From positions 1-12,472 of the forward strand of contig JBHIAV010000066.1 of assembly GCA_046758745.1 (NCBI GenBank): DNA of 12,472 nucleotides, read 5' to 3'. This document shows, piece by piece, positions 1 through 12,472 of this stretch. Within the stretch, counting starts at the first letter, position 1. Each line of letters begins with the position of its first letter. Both the position numbers and the translations under genes were made by a program. The stretch is from Gemmatimonadota bacterium (GTDB lineage: Bacteria > Gemmatimonadota > Gemmatimonadetes > Palauibacterales > Palauibacteraceae). The notes beneath the pieces are model-generated. The model searched no databases. It saw only the letters and a list, made by a program, of their open reading frames with translations, and had not been told where the DNA came from.

Positions 1-1641
1 GGTGTCGTGTTGTACGAGATGCTCGCCGGACGGCGGCCGTTCGCGGCGGAGCGACGCGAGCCCCTGATCCACTCGATCCTCAACGAAGGGCCGCCGCCGC
101 TTCGGTCGCTGCGGCCGGATGTGCCTCCGGAGCTAGAACGGATCGTAGCCGGCCTGCTCGCCAAGGATCCCGAGGAGCGACTGCCGACGGCCGACCGCCT
201 CCTCGAAGAGTTGGAGGCCGTCGCCTCCGGGACCTCCCGGCTGCGAAGTGCGCGTTCCCCCGTGCGCGCGTTCGCGGCGGTGACCGCCGTGGCGCTCACC
301 ATTGGCCTCGGGACCTTCTTCCTGACCAATCGGGCCACATCAAGCGATCCAGGGGAGGGAATGGACCCTGGGCTGGTTCCCGTGGTTCCGTTTCAATCAA
401 GCGCGCAGGACTCGTCGCTCGCCTACCTCAGCGATGGAATGGTGGAGCTTCCGGCTGCGAAGCGTGACCGGCCGACCGACGACATCGAGGCGTACAATCT
501 GTACCTGCGCGGGCGTTTTCTGTGGGGCAAGCGAACGAAAGAGTCAATGGAGCGGGCGGTCGAGTACCTCACGCAGGCAATCGGGCGCGACCCGAGCTTC
601 GCCGAGGCCTGGGTGGGGCTGTCGGATGTCTACGCCGTCCTGGCAACCTATGGCTACTGGCCTCTTGACAGCGCGTTGGTTCCGGCCAAAGAGGCCGCAG
701 AGCGGGCCGTCCAGCTCGATGATGAGCTTGCGGCCGCCCACGTCTCACTCGGACACGTGCGCGCCATCGCAGATCAGGATTGGCAGGGCGCGGTCAACGA
801 CCTTCGCCGTGCGATCGCACTTGATCCAGGTGAAGCCAACGCGCACCACTGGTTGGGCCACGTCCTCCTGGTGGGCGACGGTCGCCTCGAGGAGTCGATA
901 AGGGAGAAGCGGCTGGCCGCGCGGCTCGATCCGCTCACCCCTATGTACAGCGTCAGTCTCGCCAAGCGTCTCGTATCAGCGCGTCACTACGAGGAGGCGA
1001 GCGAATGGTACGAGCGGGCGCTGGAGCTGGATCCAAACTTCAGAGTTTCTCAGCAGGGATTCGGTCGCATGCTTCTCGGTCGCGCGCTGGCTCAGCCAGA
1101 GGCCGAGGCGCTTGAGGAAGCCGTCCGTGCGCTCGAAGCGGCGATGAAGACGGGCCGCGACAGCGTATTCGTCATGCCTGACCTGGCTTCCGCGTTCGCC
1201 GTGGCCGGCAATGAGGCTCGCGCCCGAGAGATCATCAGGCAGGCGCAGATGATGGGAAGTCGGCCGATCGACATTGGCCTGGCGTACGCGGCCCTCGGAA
1301 ACGCCGACAGCGCGTTCGCCTGGTTGGAGCGGCAGCCCTTTGGGGCTAGCGGAGAGACAACCACGCTCCTGCGCTTCGAAAGCCTCCGGAGTAGCCGGCC
1401 GATTTGCCGCGGCCGGCGTCCCGCCTCGTGGAGCTGTGCCCCGCCATCCAGAGATGATCCCGCTCTCCCTGCAGGAGGGATACGCCCAATGGATCTCGCG
1501 CGGCACGTCGAGCCTCCGGACCAGGAGCCGGCCCGGGCAGGGCTGGCGCTTCGGACGCCGCACCGCAAGGCCGTCTGCAGCGTGTCCCCCGTAGGGGAGG
1601 CGGCCGGAGGCGACACTTCCACGGCACCGCGGCCTGCCTGA
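1..1641 (+). CDS. Ser/Thr protein kinase - TM - truncated TolB-like domain - TPR protein (5' end outside window; 3' end probably degenerate after ~1400)
   Basis: Frame 1 opens with kinase subdomains IX-XI (GVVLYEMLAGRRPF...LLAKDPEER). A hydrophobic TM stretch follows, then VVPFQ...YLSDGMVEL, then TPRs (EAYNLYLRGRFLW, AIGRDPSFAEAW, ALELDPNF) ending DSAFAWLER...RFESLRS. Sequence after ~1400 does not look protein-like. Confidence 0.9.
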   Translation, partial: GVVLYEMLAGRRPFAAERREPLIHSILNEGPPPLRSLRPDVPPELERIVAGLLAKDPEERLPTADRLLEELEAVASGTSRLRSARSPVRAFAAVTAVALTIGLGTFFLTNRATSSDPGEGMDPGLVPVVPFQSSAQDSSLAYLSDGMVELPAAKRDRPTDDIEAYNLYLRGRFLWGKRTKESMERAVEYLTQAIGRDPSFAEAWVGLSDVYAVLATYGYWPLDSALVPAKEAAERAVQLDDELAAAHVSLGHVRAIADQDWQGAVNDLRRAIALDPGEANAHHWLGHVLLVGDGRLEESIREKRLAARLDPLTPMYSVSLAKRLVSARHYEEASEWYERALELDPNFRVSQQGFGRMLLGRALAQPEAEALEEAVRALEAAMKTGRDSVFVMPDLASAFAVAGNEARAREIIRQAQMMGSRPIDIGLAYAALGNADSAFAWLERQPFGASGETTTLLRFESLRSSRPICRGRRPASWSCAPPSRDDPALPAGGIRPMDLARHVEPPDQEPARAGLALRTPHRKAVCSVSPVGEAAGGDTSTAPRPA

Positions 1642-2181: not shown

Positions 2182-2293
2182 CGATCCCCGAGCCCGATTT
2201 GAGTAAGCTGTGCCCGACGTGGGAGCGGCGCATGGCACGCATCCACCAAGTGCGCAGGCGATACGATCCCACCGCATCGCCGGAGGCGAGCGC

Positions 2294-2324
2294 AGCTGCA
2301 CCACCGGCCTCACGCTGATCAGGC
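2294..2324 (-). repeat. Degenerate tRNA-Ile(GAU) fragment / att-like core, copy A
   Basis: Minus strand GCCTGATCAGCGTGAGGCCGGTGGT matches the tRNA-Ile anticodon loop to T-stem segment with 2 changes. It is 28/31 identical to 11757-11787. Confidence 0.8.
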
Positions 2325-2482
2325 TGGGCGAAGGCATCCCTGACTGCGGCATGATGTTGGGAAAAGCCTTATTTGGCGAGGTTTCTGCCGGGATCCGGGA
2401 GCGTTTCCGACATCGCGCCGGACGGTAGGTGGACGTCCCGGCGCCGGAACAATCCCGGCGGCGTCTCCGAAATGTCGCGTCG

Positions 2483-4051
2483 TCAGCGCCCGCGTGACGC
2501 CCCGTCCCTCCCCACCTCTCCCCAGCGGGCCAGGAAACCCGTCACGAACTCCTGCACCTGCACGGGCTCGACGGCGAGGGACGCCAGCGCCATCGCCACC
2601 GTGAGGGCCAGGTGGTAGCCCTCGGAGCGCGAGGCCACGGCCCGGCGGTAAGCCGGGTGCGCGTCGTTTACCCACACGGTGGACTCGACGAGCCGGCCCA
2701 GAGAGCTGTCGTCCGCTCGGCTCTCGAAGCGGATGCGGAGCCCGTAGCGGGCTGGAATCTTTCGCGCGCCGCCTCCCGGGATGGCCGCGTCCGGGAGCTT
2801 CTTCTCCGGCGGCCCTCCCTCCGGCTCTGTGCCCTTCTTCTCCCGATCCGGGCCGACAGGCTCCTCGCTCGCGGGTTCCTCATGAGCCGGAGACCCCCCG
2901 GGCTCGAGCTCCACGCCAGGGCCGGGGACCACCCCCCGCGGGGAGGGCTCGCCGCCGAGGGGGAGGCGCCGCTGGCCGCCCCGGCGCCGCTCCACCAGCG
3001 TGGCCAGGAGCGGGTAGTCCTCGGAGAGCCCCGCCAGGACGGACTGGAGGTCCCGCTCCAGGGACCGCGGCCGGGGACGCCGGGGGCCTGAGGTCCCCGG
3101 GCCCTCTCCCCACGCCTCGAGCTGCATCGACACCGCCTCCTGGATCGCCTTCCGGTAGCCGAGGAAGACGGCCCCGCGGGGCCCCGCGCGGACGAAGTCC
3201 GCCTTGTTCAGGGTGAGGGACTCCGCCAGGGGCGGCACCTCGATCAGACCGCCCACGTCCGCCGGCCGGCTCGGGGAGATGCCGAGCCAATCCCACCCTG
3301 CCTGGATCACCTTGCCCAGCGTGCTCACGGCGATCCCCCGCTCCTCCTCGGCCAGAGCCGGATCCCGGTGGAGGAAGCCGACGCCGGAAGCCTTCCGCTG
3401 CCGCCCGACCCGGACCTCCAGCGACACCCGGCCCGGGTGGAGGGCCGTTCGGGCGAGGAGGCGGCCGTTCAGGTGAAAACGGACCCCGTGCGGATACTGG
3501 GAGGCCAGGATGTCGTCGAACGCAGGGTCGAAGAGCGGCCGGAAGTGGCGCAGGAGGCTTCCCTCGATGAAGCCCGGGTCCAGGAGCTGAGAGAGAGCGT
3601 TCTCCAGGTACAGCCGGACCGCCGTCCCGCCCCCATCGAGTAGCGCTCGGGGCTCGACCCAGCGCCAGGGGGCGCGCGTTCGGGAGGCGAGGCGCCAGGA
3701 GGTGGCGAGCGGCGTCCGTGCCCGGGCCGTCTTCGTCTCGGTGACCACCTCCTCGGAGACGAGGAGCCCGAGCTTGATCCCGACCCCCGCGAAGCCGATG
3801 CCCCGCCCGCGCCGCTTGCTGGTCACCGCGAGGTCATGGTAGCGGGCGAGGGCGCTTCGCCCCATCCCCTTGCCGTCGTCGTTCACCGTCAGCGTCCCGG
3901 CGACGGAATCGGCGACGATGTACACCTCGCCGGCCCCCGAGTCGAGGGCATTGGCGACGATCTCGGTGAGGATCGTCTCCTCGAGCGGGCCGGGGTAGGC
4001 GTCCCGGAGGTCCTCTAGCAGGCGGAGCAGGTCGACCCGGGTCTCTCCCAT
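2483..4051 (-). CDS. GHKL (HATPase_c / MORC-like) ATP-binding protein, 522 aa
   Basis: Start MGETRVDLL. GHKL motifs: TEIVANALDS (N box), DDGKGM (G1), GFAGVGIK (G2), GGGTAV. Then GLIEVPPL..LTLNKADF, a Pro/Glu-rich linker and a C-terminal VWVNDAHPAY. Confidence 0.88.
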   Translation of the reverse strand: MGETRVDLLRLLEDLRDAYPGPLEETILTEIVANALDSGAGEVYIVADSVAGTLTVNDDGKGMGRSALARYHDLAVTSKRRGRGIGFAGVGIKLGLLVSEEVVTETKTARARTPLATSWRLASRTRAPWRWVEPRALLDGGGTAVRLYLENALSQLLDPGFIEGSLLRHFRPLFDPAFDDILASQYPHGVRFHLNGRLLARTALHPGRVSLEVRVGRQRKASGVGFLHRDPALAEEERGIAVSTLGKVIQAGWDWLGISPSRPADVGGLIEVPPLAESLTLNKADFVRAGPRGAVFLGYRKAIQEAVSMQLEAWGEGPGTSGPRRPRPRSLERDLQSVLAGLSEDYPLLATLVERRRGGQRRLPLGGEPSPRGVVPGPGVELEPGGSPAHEEPASEEPVGPDREKKGTEPEGGPPEKKLPDAAIPGGGARKIPARYGLRIRFESRADDSSLGRLVESTVWVNDAHPAYRRAVASRSEGYHLALTVAMALASLAVEPVQVQEFVTGFLARWGEVGRDGASRGR

Positions 4052-4132
4052 GACCGCGAATATGCCTCCGGGAGCCGGACCGGCCAAGCGGAGGTTGGCA
4101 CCGTAGGGCCAAGGGCCCGGGTCGGATTGCGA

Positions 4133-4329
4133 CTACGACGAGCTGCCGGACTCGCGACGACGCAGGATCTGTCGCAGAACGATGATGTCTTCCCGGTCTT
4201 GCGGTCGGCCGCCTTCTTGGAGCGGATGAAGTCGGCGAGCCCAGCGGCGAGCAGCTCCACTCCGAACACCTCGAAGCGCACCGCCCCCTCGACCAGATCC
4301 TCGTATCCTCGGGTTCCGGAAGGCACGAA
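4133..4329 (-). pseudogene. Frameshifted 3' remnant of a nucleotidyltransferase-family protein
   Basis: FVPSGTRGYEDLVEGAVRFEVFGVELLAAGLADFIRSKKAADR changes frame near 4200-4208 into PQDREDIIVLRQILRRRE...*. Joined, this gives the typical L.D.I.SK.AA.RP.D..D ending. Confidence 0.75.
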
Positions 4330-4459
4330 GGCTGAGGCCGTGTCCTTCGGACGATGTTGGAGCCGAGCGGTCCGGCCATCGCCGCGCCCTGCGACCCCGC
4401 CACCCGCAGCGATCGCCTTTCGCGCGTGCCGCCGCTGACAGCCCCCTGCCGCGAAGTCT

Positions 4460-4776
4460 CCGAGCTTCTACAGCTCCGGGGGAAGCCACCTACGACCTTC
4501 GTTACTGGCTGGACCTGGAGGTCGAGGCCGACAGCGCCCCCAAGGATCTGGACCTCTTCCTCCGCTTCGAGTGGCTGGAGTCCTGCGGGCACCTGAGCGC
4601 CTTCGAGATCGTCGGGCGCGTCTACGGGGATGGGTACGGATCTGTTCGTTCTGCGGGTACGGGGAGGAAAACTCGTTCTGCTGGATGCACACGCGACCGC
4701 CCACGGGTGCGGGGAAGATGGTCTCCTGCCCGTTGTAAATTCGCCGCGCATGGGGGTGTGCGCATACGAGGGTTGA
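4460..4776 (+). pseudogene. Degraded Cys/His-rich conserved hypothetical protein (possibly related to pRiA4b ORF-3-like proteins)
   Basis: Pieces in shifting frames: LLQLR / EATYDLRYWLDLEVEADSAPKDLDLFLRFEWLESCGHLSAFEI / ICSFCGYGEENSFCWMH / ATAHGCGEDGLLPVVNSPRMGVCAYEG*. Missed by the ORF track. The 5' boundary is approximate. Confidence 0.75.
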
Positions 4777-4982
4777 GGGGCCCAGGGCCTGGCGCTCACT
4801 CTCAGCCCGTCGCGGCGCCCGCCAGGGCGCTCACGCTTGCGTCGGCCGGTGCCCTAAGCGACAGCCCCGACCGCGTGGACGCCCGCGGGGATCGATCCGC
4901 GCGGATCGGGGCGGCACTCACGCTGGGAGAAGGTTAGACCAGCCTCCGGTTCCGCACGAAGAGCGGCTCGGCGTCCCGGGAC

Positions 4983-5435
4983 CTACCGCTTCGCTGCCTC
5001 GGCAGTCTCCGCGGGGGCCACCCCCAGCTGCGACAGAAGGGTCAGCATGTCGAAGTACTGCCGCATCGAGATGGCCTTGCCGCCTCGGATGCGAATCACC
5101 TGACAGGATCGGAGCGCGATCCTCTTGCCCGTCGGCGGGATCTCGCCGTCCGGGAGCGGGAGCGGCCCGGTATGCGTGCCCCGCCACGTCAGCGGGAGCA
5201 CCACCGTGTCACCGTCCACGAAGGGGTCCTCAAAAGTCGCCCGGGAATCGGGCAACGCCTTCGCCCAGCCGCGCCACAGGTCGATGACCTCGTCGATCCC
5301 CTCGGCTTTGCGGTACGTCGCCACTTCGTCGTACACGAACTCCGGTGCTAGGGCGTTGCGGACGGCGTCCCAGTCCTTCTCGCCGTACGCTTCGGATGGG
5401 GCCTTGGCAGCCGTGATGAGTTCCTGGCGGGACAT
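4983..5435 (-). CDS. SnoaL-like ester cyclase (NTF2-like fold), 150 aa
   Basis: AGGAGG RBS before ATG at 5435. Motifs GDTVVLPLTWRGTHTGPL, IPPTGKRI, RQYFDMLTLLSQLG. Confidence 0.93.
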   Translation of the reverse strand: MSRQELITAAKAPSEAYGEKDWDAVRNALAPEFVYDEVATYRKAEGIDEVIDLWRGWAKALPDSRATFEDPFVDGDTVVLPLTWRGTHTGPLPLPDGEIPPTGKRIALRSCQVIRIRGGKAISMRQYFDMLTLLSQLGVAPAETAEAAKR

Positions 5436-5686
5436 CTGGTCCTCCTGTGGTGGAAGGCGGGTAGCTCCGGCTGACGGGGGCCTCTGGGGCGCGGTGGACC
5501 GTCGGTCAACTCCGGGCCGGTCGCCACGCGTGCAGGGTTGGGCGAGCGCGAGCGGTGCCCGCGGCCGAGCCGGAGCGCCGACCACGTCGCGGGTTCACCA
5601 GTACGCTCCAAGCTACCACACTTCCGACACGCGAGCTACCTGCCTCCGACATGACCACTGGCGGCCGCCGCAACGTGCGTGCCCGG

Positions 5687-6433
5687 TCAGCGCCGGGCGG
5701 CCATCGCCTCCGGGATCCGCAGGGCCTCCTCCAGCCGCACCGTCATGCGCGAGTCCTGCGGCATGACGGCCTCGTGGTCCCTGGTCGTCACCATGATGAG
5801 GGTGCCCGCCAGGCCGCCCGCCGCCGCGCCCGCCAGGGTGGCGGCAGTGCTGTTGCCCAGCAACCCTCCCAGCAGCGCGCCCGCCGCGACGCCGCCGCCC
5901 ACGATGGCCACGTCGCCCAGGGTGCTCCGGTTGGCGTCCTCCTTGGTCACCGCCCTCAGCACCCGCGCGTTGACGGGGATGCGCCGGCCGTTCACCTCCA
6001 TGTCGACGGGCCGCACGGCAATCACGTTCTTCGTGTCTCCGTTCACCTTGCGCTCGCCAGCCTCCGTGACCTCCCCGGTCAGTCGGGCGCCGGAGGCGAT
6101 CACGACGCGCCCGTCGTGCATGATGTCCGTGTCGAGGATGCCGGTGAAGCGGTCGCCGACCTCGTTGTCGTCGCTGCTCAGACGCTGAGTCAACCGCACC
6201 TCGAACTCGGTGCCGGCCGGCACGACGATGTCGCCTCCAGAGCCGGATTCCGAAGCGGAGACCGAGGGGGAGTGCCCCCGGACGGCCCGCTCGAACAGCG
6301 AGATGCTCTGCGCCGACAGCGGGGCCGCCAGGGCCAGGGCGAGCAGCGCTACCAGAGTCGGAGTGGCCGCCAGAGCCGGTCGGGCGGGGAAGAGTCGCTT
6401 CGTTCGCAGGGGAAGTCCTAATCTGTTTTCCAT
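5687..6433 (-). CDS. Secreted hypothetical protein with a TrbI/VirB10-like beta domain and glycine-zipper segment
   Basis: Signal peptide (LVALLALALAAPLSA-Q). Motif VPAGTEFEVRL..RLSS...VGDRF...DGRVVIASGARLTGEV and GGGVAAGALLGGLLG. GGAG upstream of ATG 6433; alternative start 6448. Confidence 0.8.
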   Translation of the reverse strand: MENRLGLPLRTKRLFPARPALAATPTLVALLALALAAPLSAQSISLFERAVRGHSPSVSASESGSGGDIVVPAGTEFEVRLTQRLSSDDNEVGDRFTGILDTDIMHDGRVVIASGARLTGEVTEAGERKVNGDTKNVIAVRPVDMEVNGRRIPVNARVLRAVTKEDANRSTLGDVAIVGGGVAAGALLGGLLGNSTAATLAGAAAGGLAGTLIMVTTRDHEAVMPQDSRMTVRLEEALRIPEAMAARR

Positions 6434-6673
6434 GGCTCGCGTCTCCATCTATCCAAGGTGTCGGCCCGCGACGTCGTGGGCCGGCACCCCCTGGGGGAAC
6501 GCGCGCCCTACGCGCTGCTCTCGTGATATGGAAAACACGCCTTCCCCGGGGGACGGTTCCGGCCCGCGGTGAGGGCAGCGCGACAAAGCCGCTAACCAGA
6601 GGCCCTGACGATCAAGTAGGTTCAAGTCGGCCCACGCGCGACGAACAGACCTGCGTCAGCGGAAGGACCGAGG

Positions 6674-6970
6674 CTAGCCTGGGTCCGGCGCCTCGGTGTC
6701 GGGCAGCGCCGCGGCGGGCACCGCCGTGGTTTGGCGGCAGCAGTCGACCAGCTCCTGTAGACGCGCGGGGCTGAACCCGATCACCAGGTCTTTTCCATGC
6801 GCGATCACGGGGACGCCGACACCACCGGAGATCGTCCGCCACTCCCGTAGGTGTTCCACGTCTTTCGTGATGTCAAGTTCTTCGAATTCGCACCCGTTTC
6901 CCCTAAGCCAAGCCTTCGCTTGCTTGCAGTAGGGACACGTGGGGGTCGTGAAGACCCGGATCTGGGCCAT
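6674..6970 (-). CDS. Glutaredoxin-like (NrdH/YruB-type) redoxin, 98 aa
   Basis: AGGAGG RBS. FTTPTCPYC active site, GVPVI cis-Pro loop, VIGF. Confidence 0.93.
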   Translation of the reverse strand: MAQIRVFTTPTCPYCKQAKAWLRGNGCEFEELDITKDVEHLREWRTISGGVGVPVIAHGKDLVIGFSPARLQELVDCCRQTTAVPAAALPDTEAPDPG

Positions 6971-7164
6971 AGTAGCCTCCTGTTTCGAAGGGAGCCGCGG
7001 TACTGGCGCACGTCTCGCCCCGCGTTTGTTGAGACTGCTAGACGTCGGCCCGGACGGCCGTATCCCCCCGGTGGATGAGGTTGAAATGTCCCCCCCGGGG
7101 GCTTGCGGCCTCTTCCTCGAGAACCACGTCTGGGGGCACGTAGAAGTCGCGCCCGCCAGGCACC

Positions 7165-9894
7165 TCACCCACCGCCCCCCTCCAGCCGATCCAGCAGTGC
7201 CTCTAGCCTCCGGATCGTCGCGCGGAGCTCCTCGCGGACCTGGTCCACGAGCTCCGGGTCCGCCCGGGCTGCGGCCGCCTCCGGCCCCGGCACGGCGGCC
7301 TCGGCGACCGGCGCGACCGCGGGCAGCTCCCCGATCAGCGCGGCGACGGAGGCGTCGAGCGTCTGGTGCATGACCACCTGACGGGTGTCGGCCAGGATGA
7401 TGCGACGGAGCTCCGGGAACTCCAGGGTCTCCGGCTTCAGGAAGACCGGCTCCGCGTAGAGGATGGCGTCCCCCATCGGGATGACCAGCAGGATCCCCCG
7501 CATCACTTCCGAGCCCACCTGACCCCACAGCGTGAACTGCTCGGAGATCACCGCGTCGTTGTCGATCCGCGCCTCGATCTGGTTGGGGCCGTCCACGTGC
7601 CGCCCCGTCGGGAACCGGAACAGGATCCGCTCGCCGTAGTGCTCGCCATCGTTCCGGGCCGCCATCCACCCCACCAGGTTATGCCGGTTGTCGGGCGTGA
7701 ACGGCTGGATCAGCAGGAACTCCTCGGCCTCCTCGCCCGGCAGCCGGGCCACGATGTAGTAGGACCGGAGGGGTGCCGAGCTCCCGAAGGAGGTCTGGAC
7801 CGGCACGTCCCACTGGTCCTCCTTGTTGTAGAAGACGACCGGGTCCCGCATGTGGTACTGGAGCAGCATCTGCGTCTGCACGCTGAACAGGTCCAGGGGC
7901 ACCCGGACGTGCGCGCGCAGATGCTCCGGCATCGCCTCCCGCGGCTTGAAGAGCCCGGGGAAGATGGCCTGGTAGGTGCGGACAAGCGGGTCGTTGGGAT
8001 CGAAGACGTAGAAGTCCACGCTCCCTTCGTAGGCATCCACGACCGCCTTCACGCTGTTCCGGATGTAGTTGAACCGGCGGTTCCACCTCGTCGCGTAGGG
8101 GTAGCGGCGCGTGACCGTGTAGGTGTCCTGGATCCAGGACACCCGGCCGTCGGCGACCACGGCGTACGCCTCGCGGTCCCGCATCAGAAACGGGGCGATC
8201 GTGCCCACGCGCTCGGCCACCGTCCGGCGGTACTGGATGCGGCTCTCCGGCCCCACCTCGCCGGTGATCAGGATGTTCAGGTCGCCGAACTGCCAGGCGT
8301 ACAGCAGCCGTCGGAAGAGCGAGCTCACCCGCACACCGCCGCCCCCCTCGTAGCGGATGTACTCGGGTCCCTCCGGCCCCGGGTAGTTGAACTCCTGCAT
8401 CCCCGTGCGCGCGATCACGAAGTCCAGGCTCCGGAGGCCGTAGTAGATCTCGGGACGCTCGAGCGGGATCCGGCCGACCGGCGGGACGTCGCGGATCAGG
8501 AAGGCGGGTCGCCCGCCGGCCTGGACCTCGGTCACGGGGCTCATCGCCACCCCGTAGCCGTGGGTGAACTGGAGGCGCCGGTTCACCCAGCGCTGCGCCT
8601 CGGCCGGGAGCTTTCCGGCCGACAGCTCGCGTGTGGCGAGCATCACCTGTCGCAGCTCGCCGTCCACCGTGTAGCGGTCGGTGTGCACGGCCAGGAAGTC
8701 GTAGTAGAGGCGGAAGAACTGGATCTGATTGTAGCTCTGGAGCAGCGGGCCCTCGTCCCAGAGCCGGATGTTCCGGATCGTCCCGCGGTTGCCGGCGACC
8801 GTCTCCCCCTCGATCGCGCCGCGGGCCGGATGGTCGCGCGACGTCAGGCCTTCGAGCCCGAAGGCGCGGCGCGTGAACTCGATGTTGCTGGCCAGGTACT
8901 CCCGCTCCAGCGCCAGCTCGCTCGGCTCGACGCGCAGCCGCTGGACCGCCACGGGCGCGACGATCCCCACCAGGATCCACGCGGCGGACCAGCCGACCAC
9001 GGGCCACAAGATCCACCGGCGTTCGCGGGAGAAGACGCCGCCGACGAACACGAACCCGGCGGTCGCCGCCGCGACGGCGGCCAGCAGCGTGCGGCCCGGC
9101 AGGTGCACGTGGTCGTCGGTGTAGCCGACGCCGAACACCGTCCCGGTGGGCGAAAACAGCAGCTCGTAGCGCCCCAGCCAGTGTCCGACCGCGATGAGCA
9201 GGAAGGTCGCCGCGCCCAGGGCCGCCAGCCGCTTCCGCACTCCGGCCTCGAGCCACGCCGGATCGCCCCGAAGGTTGCCGGTCACGTAGTGGAAGCCTAC
9301 GAGGATCACCCCGAGGCCCACGACCGCCGCCAGGAGCCAGCCGTGTGCCAAGCGCAGGGCCGGAAGCGTGAAGATGTAAAAGGAGAAGTCCCGGCCGAAG
9401 ATCGGGTCCGACTCGCCGAACGGGACGGCGTTCAGGGCGAGCAGCACCGTTTCCCACTCCGACGCGGCGTACAGGCCCAGGAGGACGGCGGCCAGGAGGA
9501 CGACCGCGGCCACGCCCCGGACCAGGAACTTGTGGAGGAAGTGGTAGTCCAGCACCTCGAGCGGGGCGTCAGGCAGCGGCGGCCGGTCGCTGGAGCGGCC
9601 CACGCCACGCAGGCCGAGGAACCCCAAGCCCAGGAAGAGGACGACCGCGAGCGCAAAGAGGACGACCCGGGTCGTCACGATCTCGACCAGCACCGCCTCG
9701 TACCCGAGCTCGCGGAACCAGAGCCAGTCGGTGTAGAACCCCCGCGACCAGTTCAGCCCCGCCCACACCAGGATCAGCCCCAGTACCCAGAGCCCCCAGC
9801 GCATCAGCTGGCGGATCCGGTCGACGTCGACCGAGCCGAGGTCGATCTTGTCCGACGCGCCCTTGCGGCGCTGGAAGTCTGGCAGGTCGTTCAT
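7165..9894 (-). CDS. UPF0182 family membrane protein, 909 aa
   Basis: YTDWLWFRELGY, DPIFGRDFSFYIFTLP, GYTD, NIRLWD, FTHGYG, PEIYYG, NYIRNSVKAVVDAYEG, YHMRDPVVFYNKEDQW, GPNQIEARIDND; multiple N-terminal TM helices. Confidence 0.97.
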   Translation of the reverse strand: MNDLPDFQRRKGASDKIDLGSVDVDRIRQLMRWGLWVLGLILVWAGLNWSRGFYTDWLWFRELGYEAVLVEIVTTRVVLFALAVVLFLGLGFLGLRGVGRSSDRPPLPDAPLEVLDYHFLHKFLVRGVAAVVLLAAVLLGLYAASEWETVLLALNAVPFGESDPIFGRDFSFYIFTLPALRLAHGWLLAAVVGLGVILVGFHYVTGNLRGDPAWLEAGVRKRLAALGAATFLLIAVGHWLGRYELLFSPTGTVFGVGYTDDHVHLPGRTLLAAVAAATAGFVFVGGVFSRERRWILWPVVGWSAAWILVGIVAPVAVQRLRVEPSELALEREYLASNIEFTRRAFGLEGLTSRDHPARGAIEGETVAGNRGTIRNIRLWDEGPLLQSYNQIQFFRLYYDFLAVHTDRYTVDGELRQVMLATRELSAGKLPAEAQRWVNRRLQFTHGYGVAMSPVTEVQAGGRPAFLIRDVPPVGRIPLERPEIYYGLRSLDFVIARTGMQEFNYPGPEGPEYIRYEGGGGVRVSSLFRRLLYAWQFGDLNILITGEVGPESRIQYRRTVAERVGTIAPFLMRDREAYAVVADGRVSWIQDTYTVTRRYPYATRWNRRFNYIRNSVKAVVDAYEGSVDFYVFDPNDPLVRTYQAIFPGLFKPREAMPEHLRAHVRVPLDLFSVQTQMLLQYHMRDPVVFYNKEDQWDVPVQTSFGSSAPLRSYYIVARLPGEEAEEFLLIQPFTPDNRHNLVGWMAARNDGEHYGERILFRFPTGRHVDGPNQIEARIDNDAVISEQFTLWGQVGSEVMRGILLVIPMGDAILYAEPVFLKPETLEFPELRRIILADTRQVVMHQTLDASVAALIGELPAVAPVAEAAVPGPEAAAARADPELVDQVREELRATIRRLEALLDRLEGGGG

Positions 9895-10156
9895 GACGGC
9901 AGTGCACTCCCGATGGACGGCTGACCGGGCACTCCGGCGTCCGCGGGGTCGGAAAGGTCGATCGCCGCGCCTCCGGAGCGGTCCGGGCCGAGTCCCTGGC
10001 CATGAAGCTAGGGGTCGGGCCCGGAGCCTGCGAGCGACGGGCTTCGGCGCCGGTTACACAACGCAGCTGCCGGCGCCGCCGGCCCGTTGCGTCCGATGCG
10101 GTGACTCAGCAGATTCCCTCTCCCGAGCCAGCCGATCCCCCGCACCCGCTGGCGCC

Positions 10157-10648
10157 ATGTTCCTCGACGCGATCAAGAGCCTCTTCGGCGCTCGGCCGGG
10201 GGAGCCACCGGAAGCCCCCGCGGACCACAGCCCCGAGACGGATCCCATGCCCGTGGCGGCCTGCGCCCTCCTCCTCGAGGTCGCGTACGCCGACGGGGAG
10301 TTCTCGGAGCAGGAGCGGGCGCACCTGGAGGCTGTTCTGGAGCGCCACTTCGGCCTCGCCCCGGAGTCAGGGCGGCGGCTGCTCGAACTGGCAGAGACGG
10401 CGCGCCGGGAGGCCGTGGACTACTACCGTTTCACGTCCATCCTGCGGCAGAACTACGACCTCGGGCAGAAGATGGTCCTGGCCGAGGTCATGTGGGGGCT
10501 AGTGTTGGCGGATGGGGAGATCGCGAAGCGGGAGCAATACCTCACCCGCAAGATCGCCAACCTCCTGGACCTGAAGCCCGGCTACCTGTCGAGCGCGAAG
10601 CAGGCGGCGGCCAAGCGGATCTGCTCGAGGGAGGGAGGGGAGCCGTGA
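10157..10648 (+). CDS. TerB-family protein, 163 aa
   Basis: AACALLLEVAYADGEFSEQE...HFGL...MWGLVLADGEI..REQYLTRKIANLL, the TerB-type double ADG pattern. Start chosen at MFLDAIKSLFG. Confidence 0.9.
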   Translation: MFLDAIKSLFGARPGEPPEAPADHSPETDPMPVAACALLLEVAYADGEFSEQERAHLEAVLERHFGLAPESGRRLLELAETARREAVDYYRFTSILRQNYDLGQKMVLAEVMWGLVLADGEIAKREQYLTRKIANLLDLKPGYLSSAKQAAAKRICSREGGEP

Positions 10649-10791
10649 CGCGGCGTCACCGGGCCGGGCGCGAGGCGGGGCGCGTCTTCGAACGCCTGCT
10701 GTGGCTGAGCGCCTCGGACAATCAGGGAGTACGGTTCCTCATCGAGCCGGTCGCCGCGGGAGAGCCGTGGGAGAGGAGCCGGGGGACCTGA
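10645..10791 (+). pseudogene. C-terminal remnant of a TPR-like conserved cytoplasmic protein
   Basis: EAGRVFERLLWLSASDNQGVRFLIEPVAAGEPWE matches a recalled C-terminal motif VFERMLWLNP.DNQGVRFL...W. Only 48 codons remain; its GTG overlaps the TerB stop (GTGA). Confidence 0.55.
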
Positions 10792-10857
10792 GCACGCCGC
10801 GGCGCCGTGTGTGCAGCCACGTCGCTCGTCCAGCCGGTGCTCGCTAGGTTTACTTGT

Positions 10858-11088
10858 ATGAGGTTTCGACCCCTCGACACGACGGCGGATGCTCTCCAGG
10901 CGCAGCGATCGGCTCTGAGCAAGCTGGATCCGGAAGCCCGCGTCCGCGCGGCGCTCGAGATGAGCGACTCGACCCGCGGCCTCCGCCTGGCGGGCCTCCG
11001 CTCACGTCACCCCGAGGCCTCGGAGAGGGAGCTCGTCGCGCGCTTCATCGCCGAGGCGTACGGGGTCTGGCTGGACCCGACCGGGTGA
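10858..11088 (+). CDS. Small helical protein, putative antitoxin partner of the downstream nucleotidyltransferase, 76 aa
   Basis: DTTADALQAQ...LDPEARVRAALEMSD...AGLRSRHPEASERE, a pattern typical of small genes preceding such NTases. GTGA overlap with the next gene. Confidence 0.8.
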   Translation: MRFRPLDTTADALQAQRSALSKLDPEARVRAALEMSDSTRGLRLAGLRSRHPEASERELVARFIAEAYGVWLDPTG

Positions 11089-11657
11089 CGCTCGAGACGT
11101 TCCTCCGCCGCGTCGTCGCGATTGTCGGCGACACCGGGATTCCCTACATGCTGACGGGCTCGATCGCGGTCGCCTACTACGCGGAGCCCCGAGCCACGCG
11201 GGACATCGACGTCGTGATCGCCGTTTCGCCCGGGGAGATCGAGCGACTGCTGCGACGGCTGGATGCCGAGGGGCTCTACGTGAGCCACGAGGCCGCGCGC
11301 GAAGCGCTGCGTCGACAGAGCCAGTTCAACGCGATCGACCCCGAATCAGGGTGGAAAGTGGACTGGATCGTCCGCAAGGATCGCCCCTTCAGCCGGAGGG
11401 AGTTCGAGCGCCGGCGATCGGTGGAGCTCATGGGTCTGGAGCTGCCCATCGCAACGCCCGAGGACCTGATCGTCGCGAAGCTGGAGTGGGCTCAGAAAGG
11501 TGCTTCGGAACTCCAGCTCCGCGACGCCCTGGCGATTCTCCTTCAGCGTGGGCGCGAGCTCGACCGTGGCTATATCGAGCGGTGGGTCGGCGAGCTAGAC
11601 CTCGGTCCTGAATGGGGCGTGGTACTCGAAGAAGCAAAGCGCGAGGAAGAGGCGTAG
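11085..11657 (+). CDS. Pol-beta-superfamily nucleotidyltransferase (DUF6036-like), putative toxin, 190 aa
   Basis: GTG start overlaps the upstream stop. Motifs YMLTGS....Y..PRATRDID, KVD, TPEDLIVAKLEW, QLRD, LDRGYIERWV. Confidence 0.88.
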   Translation: MTLETFLRRVVAIVGDTGIPYMLTGSIAVAYYAEPRATRDIDVVIAVSPGEIERLLRRLDAEGLYVSHEAAREALRRQSQFNAIDPESGWKVDWIVRKDRPFSRREFERRRSVELMGLELPIATPEDLIVAKLEWAQKGASELQLRDALAILLQRGRELDRGYIERWVGELDLGPEWGVVLEEAKREEEA

Positions 11658-11699
11658 GGGACGCCGTTTCCCCGCGTGGCCCCACCGAGTCGGGAACCA

Positions 11700-11787
11700 T
11701 GGGCCCGGGTGGATTTGCGGCGTTGTCCAGCCCCGCGAGCCCGCGTTAGCGGGTGGAGCGGCACCACCGACCTCACGCTTATCAGGC
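11700..11787 (-). repeat. tRNA-Ile(GAU) 3' half (att-like, copy B) interrupted in the T-loop by 45 nt
   Basis: Minus strand reads GCCTGATAAGCGTGAGGTCGGTGGT-[45 nt]-CAAATCCACCCGGGCCCA: anticodon loop CTGATAA, T-stem GGTGG/CCACC and acceptor 3' strand. The 5' half of the tRNA is absent. Confidence 0.9.
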
Positions 11788-11851
11788 AGAGACAAGTACC
11801 GCCGGATTCCGCCAACTTGCTGCGATTTAGGGGATTCGGCGACATGTTGAT

Positions 11852-11909
11852 CGGGCTCAGGTTGCAGGATGTCGGGCTCCACCGGGCTCAGTAGACACCT
11901 TGTAGACAC
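11852..11909. repeat. Putative integrase arm-type and accessory-factor sites
   Basis: GTAGACAC twice (11891, 11902) and CGGGCTC three times (11852, 11873, 11883), about 65-120 bp from the att-like core. Confidence 0.55.
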
Positions 11910-12093
11910 TGGTTCCCCGGTCTGAACTCCCGGCTCGTCGCTCTTCTCGAACGCACCGTTGCGACAGCCGCTCCGCTCGGGCTCTCTCAGGGCCCGGCCG
12001 GAGCAGGGAGCTTCGGATATGAGGAGGGAACAAGAACGAAGCGGCCCATATGGCGGGCATGAGCGCCTCGAATCCCGAGCGGTCCCGGACTGA

Positions 12094-12225
12094 AGACAAT
12101 TCTTGGCGAAAGTTACGATACACGTTATTTTTGCAGAGAATCGTATCTCTGGACCGGCAGGTTGGGTACCGAGACGATTCTTGGCCAAAGTTACACCGAA
12201 CGTTACATTAGAGGAGAACTGTATC
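12094..12225 (+). promoter_or_regulatory. Duplicated inverted-repeat operator upstream of abiEi
   Basis: Two AT-rich 54-bp units (12094-12147, 12172-12225), 40/54 identical, with 21 of the first 23 nt identical. Each unit is an imperfect palindrome. The second ends 2 nt before the ATG and contains GAGGAG. Confidence 0.75.
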
Positions 12226-12227
12226 GC

Positions 12228-12472
12228 ATGCGCGCACGCGACTACATCCGCGACCTGGCCGCGAACGGACGCTATCACTTCACTACCCAAGAGGCAATCG
12301 CAACTGTCGAGGGTGAGCCCGCCTCCGTTCGAGCTCAGTTGCGCCGGTTGAAGGAGCAGGGTCTGATCGCCGAGCCGGTGCGCAGTTTTCACGTCATCGT
12401 GCCCCCGGAGTACAAGCGCCTGGGGTGCCTGCCTGCCGAGCAGTTCATCCCGCAGCTCATGGATCTTCGCGG
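12228..12472 (+). CDS. abiEi: Type IV toxin-antitoxin AbiEi-family antitoxin (runs off window)
   Basis: MRARDYIRDLAANGRYHFTTQEA...LRRLKEQGLIAEPVRSFHVIVPPEYKRLGCLPAEQFIPQLM: winged-HTH N-terminus plus the IVPPEY...G.LP motif. Not in the ORF track because it has no stop in the window. Confidence 0.88.
   Translation, partial: MRARDYIRDLAANGRYHFTTQEAIATVEGEPASVRAQLRRLKEQGLIAEPVRSFHVIVPPEYKRLGCLPAEQFIPQLMDLR

Follow-up and report, generated by a model that had tools for sequence, protein, structure and literature searches.

Two displaced tRNA-Ile(GAU) fragments in a Gemmatimonadota contig suggest a variable island of stacked, integrase-less integrations

What leaves two copies of the same tRNA piece, 9.4 kb apart, on a contig that has no tRNA gene, and what is the DNA that lies between them? 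This question is raised by contig C66 (JBHIAV010000066.1) of the Gemmatimonadota assembly GCA_046758745.1, on which two short repeats resemble the 3′ part of tRNA-Ile(GAU). The original prediction had taken them for attachment (att) ends of two related elements, in a tandem array without an integrase. The stretch that we analyzed, hereafter the window, is the entire 12,472-nucleotide (nt) contig, and the assembly to which it belongs, G000, is a metagenome-assembled genome (MAG) of 3.07 Mb in 130 contigs that is 87% complete. Throughout, G numbers denote genomes, C numbers contigs, L numbers loci examined and X1 to X4 metagenome runs, while f1 and f2 denote families. We consider it likely that the window is a piece of a variable genomic island situated downstream of tRNA-Ile(GAU) in this Gemmatimonadota order, and that the island was built by stacked integrations.

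The two repeats, at positions 2294-2324 and 11757-11787, are identical at 28 of 31 positions, as had been reported for them; by an analytic estimate, the chance expectation for such a same-strand pair in the window is about 8e-5, and a blastn-short search of the whole 3.07-Mb assembly recovered just these two copies. The identity of the flanks was likewise confirmed, since the 74 nt to the right of the repeats align without gaps at 38 positions, compared to 21.1 ± 4.1 in about 200,000 random 74-mer pairs drawn from the window (P about 1e-4). On the minus strand, each repeat corresponds to a 3′ part of tRNA-Ile(GAU), with identity beginning 2 nt before the anticodon loop; this feature of the original prediction was upheld when the intact tRNA-Ile(GAU) genes of the same family were used as the reference. 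The core referred to below comprises 25 positions, from the end of the anticodon stem to the T-stem. The right-hand copy (R) and the left-hand copy (L) are made up as follows:

11700-11787, minus strand: copy R, displaced 3′ part of tRNA-Ile(GAU), matching 24 of 25 core positions and 17 of 17 positions of the 3′ end
11787-11786, minus strand: copy R, last 2 nt of the 5′ strand of the anticodon stem
11785-11764, minus strand: copy R, anticodon loop to T-stem
11763-11717, minus strand: copy R, 47-nt insert in the T-loop
11716-11700, minus strand: copy R, end of the T-loop, T-stem and 3′ strand of the acceptor stem
2256-2324, minus strand: copy L, decayed tRNA-Ile fragment matching 22 of 25 core positions, with the 3′ end of the tRNA lost
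2324-2323, minus strand: copy L, last 2 nt of the 5′ strand of the anticodon stem
2322-2301, minus strand: copy L, core from anticodon loop to T-stem
about 2300-2256, minus strand: copy L, remnant of the T-loop insert

Copy R thus reaches the last base of the tRNA, with 47 nt standing in for two T-loop bases, an interruption that the original prediction had not noticed. The 7-nt anticodon loop, where strand exchange presumably takes place, differs at one position between the copies, reading CTGATCA in copy L and CTGATAA in copy R. Past the T-stem, the match between the two falls within the T-loop insert, and a hairpin piece of the copy L insert matches the insert found in G007. The 5′ half of the tRNA is absent from both copies, and neither makes up a complete cloverleaf; consistent with this, ARAGORN detected no tRNA gene in the window and Rfam returned no tRNA match there at E up to 1. 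The G000 assembly also contains no tRNA-Ile gene by ARAGORN and no tRNA-Ile 5′ half. A coding motif was rejected as the origin of the repeats, as the copies lie in different frames of the minus-strand open reading frames (ORFs) at 2065-2352 and 11595-12392 (frames determined by hand) and these ORFs show no coding signal in third-position GC content (GC3), and the Rfam search (E up to 1) gave no known RNA family at either repeat. The short length of the repeats is the sole point in favor of chance similarity, or of a local duplication that has nothing to do with tRNA or mobile DNA; this explanation is refuted, and has practically no probability left, in view of the chance expectation of 8e-5, the match of both copies to the tRNA-Ile of relatives, and the arm boxes described below, which lie at fixed distances in dozens of junctions.

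The same arrangement recurs in relatives. Matches to the region around copy R were present in 46 of the 61 related genomes searched, and at least two matches lay on one contig in 20 of the 61 (G000 included), with the copies on a contig sharing the same strand in every array save that of G030:C1. Among the 29 loci examined with ARAGORN, 17 carry an intact tRNA-Ile(GAU) gene, and this gene heads the array wherever it is present (G001, G042, G046, G037 and G009). In f1, the intact tRNA-Ile is divergent from a conserved metG-PSP1-dnaE-DUF4837 block, and in f2 an M28 peptidase gene lies between this block and the tRNA. Downstream of the tRNA follow same-strand fragments that are separated by 2-15 kb of variable and unrelated cargo: a single sulfatase gene in G037, a sulfatase and a DUF3604 gene in G042, two response regulators and a histidine kinase in G046, and elsewhere kinase-TPR proteins, solute-binding proteins, peptidases, DinB, SnoaL, cytochromes, a sigma factor, and toxin-antitoxin and restriction-modification genes. 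No recombinase was found among this cargo in the 165 ORFs scanned out of 193 filtered ORFs, which contained only two insertion sequence fragments. The fragments of the relatives all begin inside the 5′ strand of the anticodon stem, which is 5 nt long, a clustering that is as expected from crossover in the anticodon loop.

The position of the locus in the chromosome can be approached through its neighbors. In G000, contig C33 opens with DUF4837 and dnaE, its first base being 717 nt upstream of DUF4837, and in G001 the tRNA is located about 880 nt upstream of the same gene; the order C33, tRNA-Ile, C66 (the last read from right to left) is plausible but unproven. The original prediction had regarded tRNA-Ile(GAU) as an unusual target on the grounds that it commonly sits in the 16S-23S spacer. 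This argument fails in the complete same-family genomes G030 and G015, in which the upstream neighbor of the single 16S gene is only a tRNA-His, the 1.5 kb downstream contain no tRNA, and the tRNA-Ile match is located elsewhere; in G030 the only intact tRNA-Ile match lies 1.67 Mb from the 16S gene, beside phoD-dnaE.

We propose that the arrays formed in a manner modelled on the known mechanism of tRNA-targeting tyrosine integrases. Elements that encode such an integrase would recombine with the tRNA gene within its anticodon loop or right beside it, and each would supply its own tRNA 3′ part, so that the tRNA gene stays whole, while each insertion would displace the prior 3′ part, and all that lies behind it, farther away. 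With the tRNA on the minus strand, the tRNA gene should lie beyond the right end of the contig. Copies R and L would then be two displaced 3′ parts, and the sequence directly upstream of each would be the far arm of the element responsible for its displacement. The 9.4-kb stretch from one copy to the other would represent one unit of the array that has kept its far arm and has no integrase, and that carries nucleotidyltransferase, TerB, UPF0182, glutaredoxin, SnoaL and GHKL ATPase genes as its cargo.

The sequences upstream of the two fragments, in which element A denotes the element to the right of copy R and element B the 9.4-kb unit, contain the following features:

11789-11910, minus strand: arm of element A, with 38 of 74 positions identical to the arm beside copy L and boxes that recur in relatives
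about 11810-11822, minus strand: dyad box CAGCAAGTTGGCG of element A, 37 nt upstream of the loop
about 11891-11909, minus strand: direct repeats of element A, two copies of GTGTCTA with a spacing of 11 nt, 124 nt upstream of the loop
2326-2440, minus strand: arm of element B, with a layout shared with relatives
about 2347-2359, minus strand: dyad box CAACATCATGCCG of element B, 37 nt upstream of the loop
near 2380-2400, minus strand: second box of element B
2420-2437, minus strand: decayed direct repeats of element B

The motifs GTGGACGTC (at 2429) and GTAGACACC (at 11891), to which the original prediction had assigned nearly equal offsets, proved to be real: they are 105 and 104 nt from the repeat ends and form part of these short direct repeats, a pair that is perfect in the arm of copy R and imperfect in that of copy L. 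The layout common to the arms consists of a dyad box (box A, CGGCA-nnn-TGnCG type) at -37, a second box near -68, and two 7-nt repeats near -125 that are spaced 11-12 nt. A regular-expression search located box A at -32 to -38 in 12 of 36 junctions, including both window copies at exactly -37, and a perfect 7-nt repeat pair was present at -124 to -130 in 15 of the 36; what speaks for these repeats is their constant position. Furthermore, the ACTGTC-type direct repeats that accompany the integrase of locus L091 are found again beside distal fragments, copy R among them, at about 125 nt upstream. The boxes most likely serve to bind the integrase and its helpers. A second type of arm, with CCAGCGCT-like repeat runs and GCGGTGA direct repeats 12 nt apart, lies upstream of seven other junctions (L083, L098, L108, L119:5193, L121:3265, L123:11950 and L130). 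The occurrence of two arm types beside the same tRNA-Ile core suggests that a second element family shares it, and thus that at least two families use this core. The box-A-plus-core pattern, searched for as an attP in the viral contigs of IMG/VR, gave no matches. Together, the fragments, the arms and the arrays of the relatives support the view that the window holds att junctions of two related elements in direct orientation, and the original prediction was in this largely right.

The integrase is missing from most of the related arrays. The window contains no integrase by Pfam, and a tblastn search with two tRNA-Ile-linked integrases at E up to 10 gave nothing convincing; with a best E of 0.11, an integrase remnant in the window was dismissed. 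Around 23 tRNA or fragment loci, tyrosine integrases account for 2 of 46 ORFs. In G027 (L091), the integrase gene follows the tRNA directly and is convergent with it, the gap being occupied by an element-borne terminator and two ACTACTGTCGATT repeats, and in G029 (L092) a related integrase, with 41% amino acid identity to that of L091, lies upstream of the tRNA. Searches with tblastn also revealed frameshifted remnants of the L091 type at the place that the integrase has in L091; the one in G012:C34 follows a normal fragment, and the one in G009:C12 follows the intact tRNA. The most complete unit is that of G012, about 4.9 kb long, in which a fragment and a terminator are followed by the remnant of the integrase, then by methyltransferase, sigma factor and cytochrome genes, and finally by an arm of the first type and the next fragment.

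The genes of the window, with coding regions defined by Pfam matches together with GC3, are:

1-1641, plus strand: 3′ part of a Ser/Thr kinase-TPR gene (Pfam TPR and the tail of Pkinase), cut by the contig start
2483-4087, minus strand: GHKL (HATPase_c_3) ATPase (Pfam E 8e-10), the last gene in the 9.4-kb unit
4983-5585, minus strand: SnoaL-like protein (Pfam SnoaL E 2e-25)
5687-6448, minus strand: unknown protein (GC3 0.90), with no family above the cut-off in Pfam or NCBIfam
about 6674-6960 (start approximate), minus strand: glutaredoxin-like protein (Pfam Glutaredoxin E 4e-14; NCBIfam YruB-type)
7165-9894, minus strand: UPF0182 family membrane protein (Pfam E 1e-263)
9848-10648 (true start probably later), plus strand: TerB-domain protein (Pfam TerB E 2.8e-29; GC3 0.83)
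10854-11657, plus strand: nucleotidyltransferase-like gene, with weak matches to DUF6036 (E 0.0066) and AbiEii (E 3.6e-4)
12162-12472 (probable start Met at 12228), plus strand: abiEi antitoxin gene (PADLOC AbiEi E 6e-25; weak Pfam AbiEi_4 match)

This content resembles that of the related arrays, in which kinase-TPR is the commonest cargo family (a 14-member cluster) and SnoaL genes are recurrent, with homologues in L119, L122 and L123. The nucleotidyltransferase-like gene is convergent with copy R, and its 3′ end lies behind this copy, where relatives have the terminator, the repeats and the integrase; it thus fills the place that the integrase takes in integrase-bearing relatives. At the other end of the unit, the 3′ end of the GHKL ATPase gene points toward the arm beside copy L. 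In the long ORF at 6674-7669, only the C-terminal part (residues 238-294) matches Glutaredoxin. The abiEi gene, which is cut by the contig end, is cargo at the distal end of element A, and this abiEi-like ORF was ruled out as a core gene of the element, as a homologue was present in 0 of 19 array loci. Just upstream of abiEi, and overlapping its start, an AT-richer stretch contains two 54-nt direct repeats (12094-12147 and 12172-12225) that are 74% alike and 78 nt apart, and these may be operator sites of the antitoxin or of a repressor. A sub-threshold Rfam match to the Pseudomonas small RNA P10 at 9824-9895, at the 5′ end of the UPF0182 gene, is most likely due to chance (23.4 bits versus a gathering threshold of 37; E 0.042).

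The possibility, raised with the original prediction, that the 9.4 kb might be syntenic core sequence in relatives without the repeats was not borne out. The relatives found for the UPF0182 gene are Gemmatimonadota MAGs, and among 13 related loci only 7157-10050 (UPF0182 and 156 nt upstream of it) can be aligned, the flanks being unalignable; the nucleotide identity of this block is 96% in L001, 95% in L002 and 91% in L003. In G011 and G006 the UPF0182 gene sits between tRNA-Ile core sites, and in G006 it is the sole gene there. It is 95% identical to the window in G011, whereas dnaE is 76% identical between these two genomes, and 84% identical in G006; across G011, G006, G012, G007 and G001, dnaE identity to G000 is 74-76%. 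Similarly, pieces of the GHKL gene are 87-92% identical at the nucleotide level, and the adjoining L junction is 76% identical, to a truncated copy on contig C64 of G007, a genome in which dnaE is 76% identical. As both UPF0182 and GHKL are far closer across genera than dnaE, and the flanks cannot be aligned, the segment is mosaic and horizontally acquired rather than syntenic core, and the UPF0182 comparison points to a recent transfer of this gene between genera. UPF0182 is present in two or three copies in G011, and G000 has a paralogue on C4 that is 37% identical. The G007:C64 copy of the GHKL gene (L132, 1510-2049) is internally deleted, with window positions 2971-3684 missing, and is located between two fragments with a T-loop insert, next to two AAA_14/DUF4143 ATPase genes.

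Could the 9.4-kb unit still move? Tyrosine recombinases generally need identical overlap regions, and the mismatch in the loop of copy L, along with its lost 3′ end, would imply that the unit is no longer excisable; on this comparison it is probably a fossil. A different view is that the unit remains mobile in the manner of a cis-mobilizable element (CIME) and is excised by an integrase acting in trans from a neighboring element of the array. Such mobility would fit a far arm in which all three boxes are recognizable, the direct att cores that bound the unit, the similarity of the UPF0182 and GHKL module across genera, which far exceeds that of dnaE, and the finding that integrase-less units bounded by fragments are the rule among relatives. 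We nevertheless regard it as unlikely, given that copy L is decayed (22 of 25 core positions, one loop position mutated relative to copy R, 3′ end lost), that the similar blocks neither span the whole unit nor end at att sites, and that the G000 assembly offers no candidate helper integrase for tRNA-Ile.

Metagenome contigs of the four runs cover the window evenly, with a depth of about 11-12 in two runs; stretches of the window that X3 and X4 left uncovered were not used, and junctions were checked on assembled contigs. In the assembled contigs of X1-X4, no true deletion or circle junction was found across the window. A candidate excision junction in X4, a skip from 2296 to 11763 with a shorter side of 23 nt, 4 extra letters and a depth of 3.3, turned out to stem from a third fragment with a different left flank, and so did a candidate circle junction in X1, a backward joint from 11719 to 2274. 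The source community therefore contains a third tRNA-Ile fragment, with the core of copy R and an insert that is the intact version of that of copy L. Its depth, about 3.3-3.6, is lower than that of the window, indicating that it comes from another locus or strain.

Several observations weigh against reading the window as the product of stacked integrations. A Phage_integrase search of five array-bearing genomes found none inside the arrays, apart from one sub-threshold piece in G012:C34, and a complete integrase-bearing element with both of its ends was not recovered. The G000 assembly has neither an intact tRNA-Ile nor a tRNA-Ile-linked integrase, and its closest integrase homologue (51% amino acid identity, on C5) adjoins tRNA-Pro(TGG). 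Of 80 loci with integrase homologues, one (L168) has the tRNA-Ile core, and this locus has no distal fragment within 9 kb. The block shared with other genera, 7157-10050, does not end at att sites, which indicates that other recombination has also shaped the segment and that site-specific recombination alone is insufficient to explain it. Finally, a T-loop insert with partly compensated hairpins is unexpected in a plain scar.

Other tRNA genes and integrases of these genomes deserve a brief description. The C5 integrase of G000 (C5:2189-3433) is convergent with tRNA-Pro(TGG) (C5:3565-3640) and probably belongs to another integrated element, with an integrase of the same family and a different tRNA target. 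Integrases with about 52% identity to the tRNA-Ile-linked one are multi-copy in several Longimicrobiales/Palauibacter MAGs (L171-L247, with at least 10 loci from one assembly), and none of these loci has the tRNA-Ile core. Dense tRNA clusters are found at contig ends of G000, at C70:2-1062 (8 genes), C14:177-817 (5 genes) and C68:9855-10405 (4 genes), the last of which is followed by a partial integrase match.

The T-loop insert is carried by many displaced fragments in several families, with a length of 45-69 nt overall: in 11 f1 sequences it measures 45-48 nt, in f2 it measures 57-69 nt and contains two GC hairpins, and in the G030 type it has 69 nt. Many fragments keep a normal T-loop. A pattern scan of the whole phylum that allowed 2 mismatches gave too much noise to support counts and was used only to note insert-bearing copies, which were seen in G030, G296, G403, G253, G331, G037 and G038; its row from genome G152 was not drawn on for any claim. 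A dispersed repeat, such as a repetitive extragenic palindromic (REP) sequence or a miniature inverted-repeat transposable element (MITE), was excluded as the source of the insert, as the assembly holds no other copy. In five f2 genomes from four genera (L097, L102, L104, L105 and L133), a fragment with the insert lies within about 70 nt behind the intact tRNA-Ile, and these proximal fragments start inside the anticodon loop; this layout looks like a conserved arrangement. In G030 (L126, 8826-9525), the end of phoD, the spacer and tRNA-Ile are tandemly duplicated over about 345 nt. The first tRNA copy, 345 nt upstream of the normal gene, is full-length, with a 69-nt two-hairpin insert in its T-loop and mismatched T-stem halves, and a fragment consisting of the T-arm only, with the same kind of insert, lies 87 nt behind the normal copy.

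The folding of the insert was then compared between the families. The consensus fold of f1 is weak, with 2 of 16 pairs compensatory and a covariation term of -0.5 kcal/mol. A three-helix model for f2, built from 10 f2-type sequences of which three are degenerate, has 83% of its cells paired, versus 35-55% when slid, and 6 of its 24 pairs are compensatory, a value that 10 of 500 shuffles attained; the set is small and made up of related sequences, and structural support for the predicted fold is modest. These data bear on the idea that the fragments with T-loop inserts are a maintained structured module, which might act as a decoy att landing pad that spares the tRNA or might be transcribed as a tRNA-like RNA. 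The recurrence of the inserts across several families, the five f2 genomes that carry one about 70 nt behind the tRNA, the pairing and compensatory changes of the f2 model, and the retention in G030 of a full-length insert-bearing tRNA-Ile copy beside the normal gene would all be in keeping with such a module. However, the f1-type fold, which is the window's own, is weak, a normal T-loop is seen in many fragments, the decay of copy L is evident, and no Rfam match was obtained; in addition, the proximal fragment of G046 bears the insert while the distal one is normal, an order not predicted by a simple landing-pad model. On balance, we consider this explanation of the fragments very unlikely, and retain that of 3′ parts displaced by stacked integrations.

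Islands and integrative elements of tyrosine integrases in tRNA genes form tandem arrays that are separated by partial tRNAs, and the window fits this known pattern, in which integrations are stacked at a tRNA gene that bears an island. As in surveys of the Islander/TIGER type, and specifically in the anticodon-loop sublocation class of Williams, the repeats are tRNA 3′ parts that start at the anticodon loop. Further features shared with tRNA-gene islands are the intact tRNA at one end in relatives, the integrase directly behind the tRNA in one of them, the arm repeats, the variable cargo and the accretion. What differs here is that the integrase is missing from the unit and from most related arrays, that many fragments carry a T-loop hairpin insert, and that two arm types occur on one tRNA-Ile core. 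CIMEs, and their site-specific accretion with integrative and conjugative elements, are known in streptococci; these too are att-bounded units without an integrase that stand in tandem with related elements, whereas no helper element or conjugation genes were seen here. Integron cassettes (attC, IntI) also form arrays of promoter-poor cargo split by short, partly structured recombination sites, but the sites here are tRNA-derived and conserved, the units are multi-gene, 2-15 kb long and in both orientations, and neither IntI nor attI is present. An integron cassette array was ruled out, given the lack of an integrase in the window and sites that are derived from a tRNA with conserved sequence, and the likeness is a resemblance only.

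Among the systems we read about, the closest described analogue is the tycheposon islands of Prochlorococcus. There, new elements push older ones into a tRNA-adjacent island in which partial tRNAs and fragmented integrases are scattered, the islands hold adaptive and defence cargo, and excision was shown experimentally (10.1101/2020.12.28.424599). The comparison is one of concept: both are adjacent to a tRNA, with older elements pushed inward, partial tRNAs and integrase fragments, but the phylum and the tRNA are different, and the experimental evidence of excision concerns the Prochlorococcus elements. No replication module or integrase of the tycheposon type was seen here, where no search aimed at them was made. 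Our literature search found no description of tRNA-Ile islands in Gemmatimonadota.

The arrays point to the tRNA-Ile(GAU) gene by dnaE as a hot spot for gaining genes, in a phylum that has been little studied and is known mostly from MAGs. On this view the island consists of stacked, mostly integrase-less units with kinases, toxin-antitoxin and defence-like genes, and UPF0182 moved between genera. This is useful for annotating Gemmatimonadota genomes and for explaining assembly breaks at this locus, and it leaves the general understanding of how such islands form unchanged. The point that could matter more is the recurrent T-loop hairpin insert in displaced tRNA pieces, which is unexplained. 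It is a bold and rather unlikely suggestion that the hairpin-bearing fragments are a maintained structured module, serving for example as spare landing pads for the exchange of integrase-less cargo between genera. Were this the case, UPF0182 and GHKL units would be exchanged while the tRNA-Ile(GAU) gene, the only one detected in complete relatives, is left untouched, and the array would be a tRNA-derived cassette platform, not a graveyard of dead elements.

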